Origin: a virus
Taxonomy: Duplodnaviria; Caudoviricetes
Virus record (IMG/VR): IMGVR_UViG_3300049844_000188
Coordinates: 1-24,212 of that record
Length of the DNA stretch: 24,212 bases
Reading direction: 5' to 3' (one strand)
Position numbers and translations under genes: made by a program. Every line of letters starts with the position of its first letter. Positions within the stretch are counted from its first letter, which is position 1. The notes beneath the pieces were generated by a model. It worked only from the letters and a program-made list of their open reading frames with translations, was not told where the DNA came from and ran no database searches. Below are positions 15-5,940 of this stretch, in pieces.

Positions 15-833
15 CTACTCTGCCATCCAGGGTGGCGAATCGCGGCTCAAATCGCTGTAATTCCCGTACTTCTCGTGCAGGTAGTCCAGGTCCTCGCGCG
101 GGTCCGATGACCGGCGAGCCTTGCTGGTCATCTCCCAGAACAGCAGAGCGGCAGCAGCGTGCTGCGCGGCTTCGTAGCGGGCACGTTGCAGGAGTCCGTC
201 CTTGACAGATGCCTGCTCAAACGCACTGATGCTTGGTGCTCCAAGTTTCTTGACGGCTTGCAGGGTCAAGGCCTCGTTTCTGTCGACTAGGGCACGTTGG
301 TGGGCTACGAGTTTGTTCGCGTCATCGAGTTGTTTCTTGAATTGCTGCTCGATTGTTTTCTGGAATGCCTTTGTGACTGCGAACAGATACTCTCGCACTT
401 GGTAGCCCTTCTCGTTGTCGAGTCTCGCGGCTATGTGCTGTGCCGTGTTCAGCAACAAGTAATAGTCCTTCCGCGCTCGACCACCAGCTTTCATCAAGTC
501 TGGCCAGTTTTCCTTCTTGCTCGGATCTGTCATGACCATGACGTAGTGGACGCCTTCAATCAAGTTCATTGACTTGATGGTGCTGGTTATCCACGTCGAG
601 TAATCTCGACCGATGCCCAGGGCCGCGTGCAAGTCCCTTGTGTTCACGGTATCGCCCGGTTCCGCGTCTGTGGCAAACAGCTTTGACACTATGGGCAGCA
701 CGGGTATCAGTGCCTCGAATATTGGGTTTACTGACACTGTCACCGACTCGGACCCGTGGCGCAGGGTCACTGTTGGCAGCTTGGACTCATTGTGTTGCTT
801 GACGTAGGCGTCAAGCAGGTCTGTATTGATCAT
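15..833 (-). CDS. AntA/AntB-family phage antirepressor (272 aa) with C-terminal coiled coil
   Basis: Motif VNTRDLHAALGIGRDYSTWI...GGRARKDYYLLLNTAQHIA...EKGYQVREYL is typical of AntA/AntB domains. Start moved from the ORF track's 965 to ATG 833, which has a GGAGAG RBS. Confidence 0.8.
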   Translation of the reverse strand: MINTDLLDAYVKQHNESKLPTVTLRHGSESVTVSVNPIFEALIPVLPIVSKLFATDAEPGDTVNTRDLHAALGIGRDYSTWITSTIKSMNLIEGVHYVMVMTDPSKKENWPDLMKAGGRARKDYYLLLNTAQHIAARLDNEKGYQVREYLFAVTKAFQKTIEQQFKKQLDDANKLVAHQRALVDRNEALTLQAVKKLGAPSISAFEQASVKDGLLQRARYEAAQHAAAALLFWEMTSKARRSSDPREDLDYLHEKYGNYSDLSRDSPPWMAE

Positions 834-955: not shown

Positions 956-984
956 ATTCTAGCAAGCAGGGGGGGGGGAGTCAA
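956..984 (-). promoter_or_regulatory. sigma70 promoter TTGACT-N17-TAGAAT with extended -10 (TGn) and a C10 tract in the spacer
   Basis: Minus strand reads TTGACT cccccccccc tgcttgc TAGAAT; it lies upstream of the antirepressor. Confidence 0.75.
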
Positions 985-1361
985 GCCCGTATGAAGCCTT
1001 CATGCCTGAAGAACGAGCGCTTGCTAACTGTCCCGTCAGGCAGGGTGCTTTCAAAGACTGTACGCTTCGTGAAAGCGTACACAGGTTGAATCTGCCACAA
1101 CCTCAGTGTTGCTTCCAAGTGGGGCATCAGGTACGGTGCGCCGCCGATCATGGCGCGTACCACGTAGCCATCCTTGTAGTTGACGTTATAGGCTGCCAGT
1201 TCTGCTATCTCCTGTGCCGTTTTGTGAAGCATGAGCTGGGTCGGCATCTCGTCGAACGTCAAAAGGGCGTGCAGGGTCGCCTGCTGGTCTTCTGGCAGGT
1301 CCACGACTCCGGCGAAGACCTGCTCGGGCGTTGCCTTGTGTTGCGTCAAGTTCAAGATCAT
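981..1361 (-). CDS. Conserved phage protein resembling Csx20-like CRISPR ring nucleases (126 aa)
   Basis: GAAAGGA RBS; N-terminal LNLTQHxATPEQ and C-terminal PVYAFTKR...E...DG.V.K.S.F.H.GF match my recollection of the Csx20 consensus. The CDS is well supported; the function is tentative. Confidence 0.55.
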   Translation of the reverse strand: MILNLTQHKATPEQVFAGVVDLPEDQQATLHALLTFDEMPTQLMLHKTAQEIAELAAYNVNYKDGYVVRAMIGGAPYLMPHLEATLRLWQIQPVYAFTKRTVFESTLPDGTVSKRSFFRHEGFIRA

Positions 1362-1372
1362 GGTTAGTCCTT

Positions 1373-1570
1373 TCAGGGTTTATTGTTGAGGGCGTAGAGT
1401 GCGGCGTCAGTGGCAGAGTCACTGACGTAGCGGACGGAATAGTCATCGCGCTCGAAGCGCACGGCGTAGTCTGATTGTCCTCTGCTGTCGGTGCTGCCAA
1501 GGTAGACGAAAGATTTGTGGCCAAGGATTCTGGCGGCTGCGACGACTGCTTCCGACTCTTTGCGGGTCAT
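1373..1570 (-). CDS. Hypothetical protein (65 aa)
   Basis: ATG 1570 follows a TTGAAAGGACC RBS; the stop overlaps the RBS of the next gene. Confidence 0.7.
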   Translation of the reverse strand: MTRKESEAVVAAARILGHKSFVYLGSTDSRGQSDYAVRFERDDYSVRYVSDSATDAALYALNNKP

Positions 1571-1636: not shown

Positions 1637-1840
1637 TTACTGCTGGGGGTCGAACAGGTGCCTTGTCTGCACCACGTAGGACAGGCCCGGATGTCTTTGG
1701 GCAAGGCGTGCTAACTCGGCCTCGTTGTTGAACGGGTACTCGGCCACGTCGACGTAATTGTCCTCGTCTTCGGTCTCTCCTTTGACGAGGGCGACGAACA
1801 GGACGCGGTCCTGCAGCCAGTGCATTTTCTTGTGCTTCAT
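1637..1840 (-). CDS. Hypothetical protein (67 aa)
   Basis: ATG preceded by the same TTGAAAGGACC RBS; co-oriented with neighbours. Confidence 0.7.
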   Translation of the reverse strand: MKHKKMHWLQDRVLFVALVKGETEDEDNYVDVAEYPFNNEAELARLAQRHPGLSYVVQTRHLFDPQQ

Positions 1841-2920: not shown

Positions 2921-3220
2921 CTAACTTGCATAGATCTCTTGCTCCTCTATGATGGTGCTGGCCAAACTGTGTCCGAATTCGATTACCGTTTCCAGATCCC
3001 TGAGTTTGCTGTTGACTTTCCAGATCCCGTTGTCGTCAAGGTACAAGACCCAGACTTCGCCATTGACTGCTGGACAGGCTTGATAACGGACGCCCTCAAA
3101 ATTCCAAAGTATCGCAGTATCATTTCTGTAGAGAATGCTGCCATCTGATTGCTGGACCTGGCCTTCCCTTTCGGGGCTGATGTTGTAGTGGTCCAGGATA
3201 TTGATGATGGTGTTAAACAT
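2921..3220 (-). CDS. Hypothetical acidic protein (99 aa)
   Basis: GAGGAG RBS 8 nt before ATG; globular-looking composition. Confidence 0.75.
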   Translation of the reverse strand: MFNTIINILDHYNISPEREGQVQQSDGSILYRNDTAILWNFEGVRYQACPAVNGEVWVLYLDDNGIWKVNSKLRDLETVIEFGHSLASTIIEEQEIYAS

Positions 3221-3246
3221 TTGTCGTGCTCCTCAAAACGGCCCTA

Positions 3247-3308
3247 TGGCCTTGCCTATGAATTGGTTTTCCATAGGCAAGGCCAGCAGAAACAACCTGC
3301 TGGCCTTG
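3247..3308. other. Overlapping double-hairpin element, copy A
   Basis: 14-bp IR 3247-3260/3272-3285 overlaps 12-bp IR 3278-3289/3297-3308. Confidence 0.7.
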
Positions 3309-3744
3309 TTTTGTTCTTTCAAGTCGCCCAGGTTTTGCCCGGTCAAGGTTTCAGGAAAACGCGAATGCGCTGCTGAATTGCAAAACCTTTAAGACAACTT
3401 GGCGCTTTAACGTTGCGCTAACGGGATTATTAGCTTTGCCTGCTTGATTGCCCTGACCATGTTTTAATCGAATCGGGAATTATTACACATATGCTCTCAG
3501 TATTAGTTAGCATTGCTAGTGCTAAGCGAATCCTAGTCCTTTTAATTTCGACCTTGTTTTCGCCACTATACTATCTGAGTTTTTAACCTTCGATAGTTGG
3601 CTCCTTTTCCTGTTATGTTTTTCACCCAACGTCACATGATCATGCTTTCTGCCTATTTCAATTTTGACTAGGCAATACTCTACCCTGCCTGAAAAATGGC
3701 ACATTTTTGAAATTGGCCTGATAGTGGAATTACAAAGCGATTGA

Positions 3745-4020
3745 TTCCAGGTTGCCCTATGGCTCGCTTCCAGGTTGCCCTATGGCTCGCTTCCAGGTTG
3801 CCCTATGGCTCGCTTCCAGGTTGCCCTACGGCTCGCTTCCAGGTTGCCATATGGCTCGCTTCCAGGTTGCCCTATGGCTCGCTTCCAGGTTGCCCTATGG
3901 CTCGCTTCCAGGTTGCCCTATGGCTCGCTTCCAGGTTGCCCTATGGGTCGCTTCCAGGTTGCCATATGGCTCGCTTCCAGGTTGCCCTATGGCTCGCTTC
4001 CAGGTTGCCCTATGGGTCGC
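3745..4020. repeat. Tandem array, 12 x 23 bp (ttccaggttgccctatggctcgc)
   Basis: Units start at 3745, 3768 ... 3998; single substitutions in units 4, 5, 9, 10 and 12; no spacers. Confidence 0.97.
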
Positions 4021-4251
4021 TTAGACCACTATCTAATTGCTGGTCTTAAAGCTGACTTGGGTTCGCTTAGTTCGCTTTGACTCTGCCAAAGTCTCATATA
4101 GTCGCCAGACCATAATCGAGATTGTTTAGCTGGATGTGGATTTCCACAGTCAGAATACAGAATCGCTGCGCTTTCACTACTGCAAGCGCTTTTCAGTTCA
4201 TCTCCCGATGAACCTATTAAGACCAGATTGTAAAAGAGCGAAAAGGCGACT

Positions 4252-4311: not shown

Positions 4312-5223
4312 TTAAGCTGCCTTTGCGCCGAATTCCAATTGATCAAGGGCTTTCAACTGCGCTGAACTCAGCTTGATTCCAAGTTCGTTTGCCAGATCAA
4401 CGAAGGCGTGAATCTTAGCGATTGTCGATTCTCCCTCGCGCCTAAGCTGGCGAGCGACCATTGCCTCATGCTCTGCCTTCTCAGTGGCCAGCCGGTGCGC
4501 GCGCGCTGTCTCTAGTCTGGCCACTTGGCTGGTTTCTTCAACCATATCATCAAACGTCGTGTTATCCAGATCAGCGCCAAGCATAGCGACGCCATCATTC
4601 CACGCCTCTTGAGTGATCTTGATCTGGGTCTTTTCTTCTTCTGCAGCAATCATTGCCGCAATTTCAGCGGCTTTCTTTTCCGCCTCAAGCTTTGCCAGCG
4701 CTTCCTTACGCGCCGCTTCAACAGTCGGGTCTTCGGATGTTTTCTTGGTGGCTGCCGGCGGCGCTAGCATTCCGCCAAGGACCGGAGATTTGCCAAACAA
4801 CTCAACCAAGTTGAATTCGCTTACGGTGGCCACATTAAGGATATTGCCGCGCAGCGCCTCGCCGATTGAAACCGCTTCGCGCAAGATACCAAGGCGCTTG
4901 CCGATGGCGCCAGAAATAACACCAGCCTTTGTTTTCTTGTAGTCCGGCAAGCTTGCTGCGTACTTCTCGCAACGGTCAAGGCGGGAATGCTCGCCGAAAA
5001 CCATTTTTGTCAATGCCAGTGAGAGTACTTTACAAGCCAGCGCATCATTTGTCGCACAACTCGATACACCCGCGAAGGCGTTAGAATCGTCGGCCCATAA
5101 CTTACGGGCAAGTTCCTTGGCTTCGTCCCGACTGACTGTGCAAGGCAGCAAAAGACGCGAACCCAGTTGGAACTTCGGGGCGCTGGCGATGGAAGCAGCA
5201 GGTGTTTGAATGATATTAGACAT
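4312..5223 (-). CDS. Hypothetical protein (303 aa) with Ala/Glu/Lys-rich helical/coiled-coil C-terminal half
   Basis: Long ORF; ATG 5223 has an AGAGGT RBS. Confidence 0.85.
   Translation of the reverse strand: MSNIIQTPAASIASAPKFQLGSRLLLPCTVSRDEAKELARKLWADDSNAFAGVSSCATNDALACKVLSLALTKMVFGEHSRLDRCEKYAASLPDYKKTKAGVISGAIGKRLGILREAVSIGEALRGNILNVATVSEFNLVELFGKSPVLGGMLAPPAATKKTSEDPTVEAARKEALAKLEAEKKAAEIAAMIAAEEEKTQIKITQEAWNDGVAMLGADLDNTTFDDMVEETSQVARLETARAHRLATEKAEHEAMVARQLRREGESTIAKIHAFVDLANELGIKLSSAQLKALDQLEFGAKAA

Positions 5224-5823: not shown

Positions 5824-5940
<117 letters not shown>

Follow-up and report, generated by a model that had tools for sequence, protein, structure and literature searches.

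A distant Csx20 homologue encoded by a freshwater phage is a candidate cA4 ring nuclease

Introduction

Two families of viral ring nucleases, AcrIII-1 and AcrIII-2, have been characterized and a third has been proposed. Canonical Csx20 fully degraded cyclic tetra-adenylate (cA4) in ethylenediaminetetraacetic acid (EDTA) buffer and has been reported in four phage genomes of 28,114 (PMC12409355), and csx20 homologues under the control of Aca14 have been proposed as counter-defence genes co-opted by phages (PMC13551039; the subject of assay in that paper is the regulator rather than the Csx20 homologue). Csx15, sponges, and a proposed viral AcrIII-3 are covered in PMC13148439 and bioRxiv 10.64898/2026.10.26.761840, the motif-I histidine being catalytic in Csx15 (PMC13148439), and AcrIII-1 is reviewed in PMC8284326. 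Here we analyze a 24,212-base virus record from a freshwater phage (IMGVR_UViG_3300049844_000188, completeness 30%; the whole stretch is called the window) and a small gene in it that encodes a Csx20-like protein. We propose, with a probability of roughly 0.6 and by analogy with described enzymes, that the phage would use the product as a cA4 ring nuclease to counter type III CRISPR.

981 to 1361, minus strand: Csx20-like gene, 126 amino acids, of the NLTQH/GGAP clade (MJ1673, Pfam PF27247), a candidate ring nuclease for cA4 by profile matches, alignment and fold prediction.

A sequence-only reading of the window had located this open reading frame (ORF) at exactly these positions, to which we add that it lies on the minus strand. 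The frame is intact, with an ATG start and a TGA stop.

Relationship to Csx20

A scan of the gene product against NCBIfam returned a single match, to Csx20 (NF040559; E 8.9e-8, 32.5 bits, residues 4–123), a score that falls below the equivalog cut-off of 70 bits. The PADLOC Csx20 model agrees (E 1.9e-7). Against a profile built from 27 genome-derived canonical Csx20 proteins, the product scores 26.3 bits and the best of 1000 shuffles 6.5; together with the two E-values, this places the likeness beyond chance. A homologue search yielded 309 proteins from 316 candidates. PF27247 is precomputed on all 120 listed homologues, 87 of which make up our alignment of relatives. All 87 match NF040559, none matches another ring-nuclease family at E ≤ 0.1, and the NCBIfam Csx15 model is likewise unmatched among them. 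The profile comparison proposed in the sequence-only reading was run with hhalign and matches the clade to canonical Csx20 over 107 columns (98.2%, E 4e-14), so that the Csx20 resemblance claimed there is borne out. By these profile matches, the product is a true yet distant, full-length homologue of Csx20 within the wider PF27247 (MJ1673) family. In a quick tree, the NLTQH/GGAP clade is separate from canonical Csx20 (Shimodaira-Hasegawa-like approximate likelihood ratio test 100).

The product contains the conserved Csx20 features, namely the N-terminal His and Gln, Y-x-x-x-x-R and F-x-H. Eight residues (H8, Q14, G74, Y95, R100, E104, F118, and H120) are conserved in 80–100% of 143 clade members and in 93–100% of 30 canonical Csx20 proteins, and the conservation of His8, Arg100, Lys114, and His120 among the 143 is 97–99%. 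The motifs named in the earlier reading are all present: H8-K-A-T11-P-E13-Q14, L22-P-E-D-Q, G73-G74 with a strand before it and a helix after it, and near the C terminus P93-V-Y-A-F-T-K-R100...E104...D109-G110...K114-x-S-x-F118-x-H120-x-x-F123; the residue called His7 there is His8. The predicted fold is CARF/SAVED-like with weak scores, and SAVED domains are among the matches over the full length. Proteins P0122–P0138 contain the clade domain two or three times in tandem, and one copy lacks the histidine in each of the four inspected, an arrangement that fits a dimeric site.

Proposed function

The proposal of a cA4 ring nuclease draws on the homology to Csx20, itself active on cA4, the shared polar residues, an AcrIII-1 gene in a sibling phage, the Aca14/Csy2-like context of the clade, two members at type III-D loci, the Csx3-domain neighbors, and the tandem forms. 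By analogy with Csx20, Csx15, and Crn1, we infer the dimer, its binding and catalysis, the residue roles, and the timing. A homodimer of a CARF-like α/β fold would bind one cA4 across its two-fold axis. Contacts would come from the β1-α1 loop (N4, T6, Q7, H8), the GGAP loop, Y95/F97/R100, and a long hairpin at the C terminus (K114, F118, H120). His8 in the motif-I loop would be catalytic, as is the matching histidine of Csx15, with Arg100 and Lys114 holding the phosphates; cleavage would be metal-independent and release short linear adenylates. The position of the gene suggests expression early in infection, when removal of cA4 would leave Csx1/Can/Cam-type effectors inactive and blunt type III CRISPR signaling in the host.

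Genomic setting of the clade

A related terminase is found in ten viral contigs, of which L238 (84% identical) is the only one to reach all the way from the gene for a ∼303-residue protein to antA, the two boundaries of the variable early region (see below). L238 contains no clade member, but it carries an AcrIII-1 family gene (L238:4903-5214, minus strand; PF08960, 40.3 bits versus a cut-off of 26) with matches to PDB entries 2j6b, 2x4i, 2j85, and 6scf. The window, a fragment, has no match to PF08960. The L238 gene sits behind a hairpin element that precedes ORF 2921-3220 in the window, and thus occupies the same interval as the Csx20-like gene but a different slot. PMC12409355 reports AcrIII-1 genes from no more than 36 phage genomes of 28,114, so the sibling gene suggests, from this one pair, that the phage group meets cA4 signaling.

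The L238 protein contains GH, NR, and RLPEG motifs, and its best cultured match (43%) is in Thermoanaerobacterium phage THSA-485A. The hairpin-rich leader (positions 3221–3290 of the window, 80% over 65 bases in L238) precedes a short ORF and AcrIII-1 in L238, and may mark a slot for expression of accessory genes.

At E ≤ 0.001 the clade profile matches 2574 representatives (50% clustering), some of them perhaps canonical Csx20; at E ≤ 1e-30 it matches 924 clusters (50% identity). We confirmed 193 of 217 candidate stretches in IMG/VR viral contigs and 75 of 106 in genome contigs as clade members, and found profile matches in 3 of 50,697 curated phage records. In the nearest clusters (atlas family name MJ1673), 50–82% of the members that have a record, which are few, are viral. 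A Cas10 domain is absent from all 50 viral records tested, 15 of them at least 90% complete (50 of 79 loci). Among 50 cellular clade-carrying genomes drawn from 74 loci, Cas10 is above cut-off in 18 and lies beside the clade gene in only 2; as a control, among 31 genomes with canonical Csx20, 22 have it and cas10 on one contig at a distance of at most 15 kb. These counts agree with the viral and mostly cas-independent occurrence that had been anticipated.

Two members are linked to type III-D loci. In L126 (8645–10387), a type III-D operon ends with a WYL-WCX protein that has a C-terminal clade domain, and in L134 the clade gene is divergent from cas10 and three RAMP genes. A cluster of fusions similar to the former protein has 17 members. 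In two Saccharibacteria loci (L138, L139), a Csx3-domain gene adjoins the clade gene.

In Pasteurella phage Pm86, the C-terminal half of a clade gene is followed by a ribbon-helix-helix (RHH) gene, a 106-residue acidic ORF, and a Csy2-like gene; a Thauera locus has the order clade member, acidic ORF, Csy2-like gene. The 37-base Aca14 operator oligonucleotide given in the supplement of PMC13551039 matches 37/37 upstream of the Pm86 member (L169:223-259). This match and the shared gene layout make it very likely that the published csx20 homologue belongs to the present clade. The anti-defence setting proposed earlier for the gene is supported for the clade by the Aca14 operator, the Csy2-like and RHH neighbors, and the AcrIII-1 gene in the sibling interval.

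Alternative readings

Several observations weigh against a cA4 ring nuclease. The QGDFG loop of Csx20 is replaced (GGAPY in the product, G-G-A-P in the clade), the C-terminal F-R-x-Y is not kept (F-I-R-A in the product, F-V in the clade), and a common plasmid form of the family lacks the key residues. No Cas10 match above cut-off is found in 32 of the 50 cellular carrier genomes or in any of the 17 Patescibacteria carrier genomes tested, TrmB-type helix-turn-helix (HTH) genes stand beside the clade gene in 9 loci (108 neighbors scanned), and no CARF-HEPN fusion occurs among 47 longer clade matches. Generic fold matches rank as high as the weakly scoring CARF/SAVED ones, the fold expected of Csx20 being a CARF-like five-stranded α/β one.

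The TrmB-neighbor loci (L099, L103, L104, L107, L115, L129, L132, L143, and L150) are mostly from Patescibacteria genomes without cas10. On large enterobacterial plasmids, a degenerate homologue that has lost the His and GGAP (L171:7995-8372) has the ssb-recT-exonuclease genes on one side and a MoxR-vWA cluster on the other.

The loss of the QGDFG loop and the C-terminal Arg, and the persistence of degenerate repeats and His-less plasmid copies, would also suit a sponge that binds cyclic oligoadenylate and titrates cA4 with no efficient cleavage, for which orphan PfCsx15 is a precedent (PMC13148439). We consider this unlikely, given the near-invariance of His8, Arg100, Lys114, and His120 in the 143 members and the two members at type III loci, in which enzymes of the off-switch kind are commonly found. 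About as unlikely is a ring nuclease or binder that acts mainly on other signals, be it cyclic tri-adenylate (cA3), other cyclic trinucleotides of CBASS (antiphage signaling based on cyclic oligonucleotides), or several of these. The altered pocket motifs, the SAVED domains among the full-length fold matches, and the carrier genomes without cas10 would be compatible with it, and published work describes degradation of cA3 at 10 µM by canonical Csx20 (PMC12409355) and cleavage of CBASS signals by Csx15 (bioRxiv 10.64898/2026.10.26.761840); however, the sibling gene belongs to the cA4-specific AcrIII-1 family, and both defence-linked clade members are at type III loci. Least probable is a nucleotide-binding Rossmann-like protein outside immunity, such as the partner of a regulator in early transcription of phages or in Patescibacteria, which the TrmB neighbors, the WYL, HTH, and DNA-methylase fusions among longer clade proteins, and the generic fold matches might suggest, but which fits poorly with full-length homology to Csx20 only, with the Aca14 operator and the Csy2-like, Csx3, and cas10 neighbors, and with AcrIII-1 in the sibling interval.

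A cA4 ring nuclease directed against type III CRISPR is the reading we prefer. A broader version, which we offer as speculative and improbable as a whole, is that the NLTQH/GGAP clade forms a very large unnamed viral ring-nuclease family, whose remodeled pocket would widen or shift specificity (cA3 or CBASS trinucleotides plus cA4), giving a single enzyme that would counter type III CRISPR and CBASS alike, that could be exchanged for AcrIII-1 and vice versa in the early regions of phages, and that Patescibacteria without cas10 would retain as well.

The locus

The plus strand of the window encodes terminase, portal, head protease, and capsid genes, and the minus strand a divergent arm of small genes, in which a run of three small ORFs ends with the Csx20-like gene and an AntA antirepressor gene comes next. 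No cas gene is found among the 14 window ORFs scanned. The features are as follows.

15 to 833, minus strand: antirepressor-like gene with an AntA domain, conserved, bounding the variable interval downstream.
956 to 984, minus strand: sigma-70-like site, 10/12 consensus match with extended -10, at the end of the Csx20-like gene.
1368 to 1375, minus strand: Shine-Dalgarno-like site of the Csx20-like gene, identical to the 8-mer before the ORFs starting at 1570 and 1840.
1373 to 1570, minus strand: 65-residue ORF without assigned function, absent from a related strain (run X4) that keeps the Csx20-like gene.
1637 to 1840, minus strand: 67-residue ORF with an acidic stretch and no assigned function, likewise skipped in the X4 strain.
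1868 to 1897, no strand: perfect 8-bp inverted repeat (arms 1868–1875 and 1890–1897), just upstream of the small operon.
4312 to 5223, minus strand: gene for a ∼303-residue protein without assigned function, conserved (39% identity in L238), bounding the variable interval upstream.

The Shine-Dalgarno-like site is strong, with the same 8-mer at 1368, 1577, and 1846. The 67-residue ORF is probably the first gene of a small operon, and the 65-residue ORF is probably co-transcribed with the Csx20-like gene. The inverted repeat is possibly an operator, judged from its letters and position; it is not an Aca14 site, the Aca14-type pattern having no match in the window. The sigma-70-like site, a consensus match of a kind no more numerous in the window than in shuffles, probably serves the antirepressor gene. 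Contigs of runs X1 and X2 cover the Csx20-like gene with identical letters throughout, and the window may itself derive from these runs. In the X4 strain, which differs by 52 letters over 838–1154, position 1357 is joined to 1837; the Csx20-like gene thus persists while its neighbors turn over.

Elsewhere in the window, ∼13 tandem copies of a 23-bp unit (3741–4030) lie within a 1.1-kb non-coding stretch. A strain in run X4 skips 242 bases of this region, and in the sibling another repeat takes its place; the array is possibly an origin or a protein-binding array. Positions 1841–2920 are AT-rich and non-coding, with a perfect 20-bp inverted repeat (2355–2374, 2394–2413) and recurring 6-base motifs, and a low-complexity GTCGTT-type repeat (5824–5939) lies upstream of the early arm.

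Comparison with known systems

The sequence-only reading regarded the gene as its best candidate for an undescribed system. This is not supported: phage csx20 genes (PMC12409355) and a proposed counter-defence role for them (PMC13551039) were published in 2025-26. Literature searches, with subscription journals outside their coverage, turned up neither a test of a viral Csx20 nor a name for the clade. What the window contributes is the sibling with AcrIII-1, two clade members linked to CRISPR, and the connection to the Aca14 operon. Curated phage sets had suggested that Csx20 is rare in phages; the clade gave 193 viral stretches in one IMG/VR scan and 924 clusters. Should its members be active, the clade would count as a major anti-type III family that has been under-counted and falls beneath the standard Csx20 cut-off. 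Related phages with a Csx20-like or an AcrIII-1 gene in the same interval, and the CRISPR-linked members, are concrete assay targets.

Csx20 (NF040559; PF27247 MJ1673; PADLOC PDLC01384), described in PMC12409355 as a CRISPR-associated cA4 ring nuclease, has the same length and Pfam family as the product and matches it over its full length, sharing H8, Q14, G74, Y95, R100, E104, F118, H120, and F123. The clade has NLTQH and GGAP(Y/F) where Csx20 has (F/M)(S/N)H and QGDFG, lacks the C-terminal Arg, has Lys114 fixed, and is mostly viral and rarely beside cas10; the product comes from a phage early arm and not from a type III locus. AcrIII-1 (DUF1874/Crn2, PF08960) is likewise a small viral protein with the same presumed job, found in the matching interval of the sibling, but it belongs to a different family and its activity is proven where that of the product is proposed. 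The Aca14-controlled csx20 homologues of PMC13551039 share the proposed role and the layout of the Pm86 member; the Pm86 copy is only a C-terminal half, and the window has no Aca14-type site and no RHH gene identified adjoining. Csx15, whose NCBIfam model is matched by none of the 87 clade members, and the proposed viral AcrIII-3 (PMC13148439; bioRxiv 10.64898/2026.10.26.761840) share with the product the CARF/SAVED-related fold, predicted with weak scores in our case, and the motif-I histidine, and they occur, as the clade does, as orphan and viral copies and as tandem fusions with one degenerate site.
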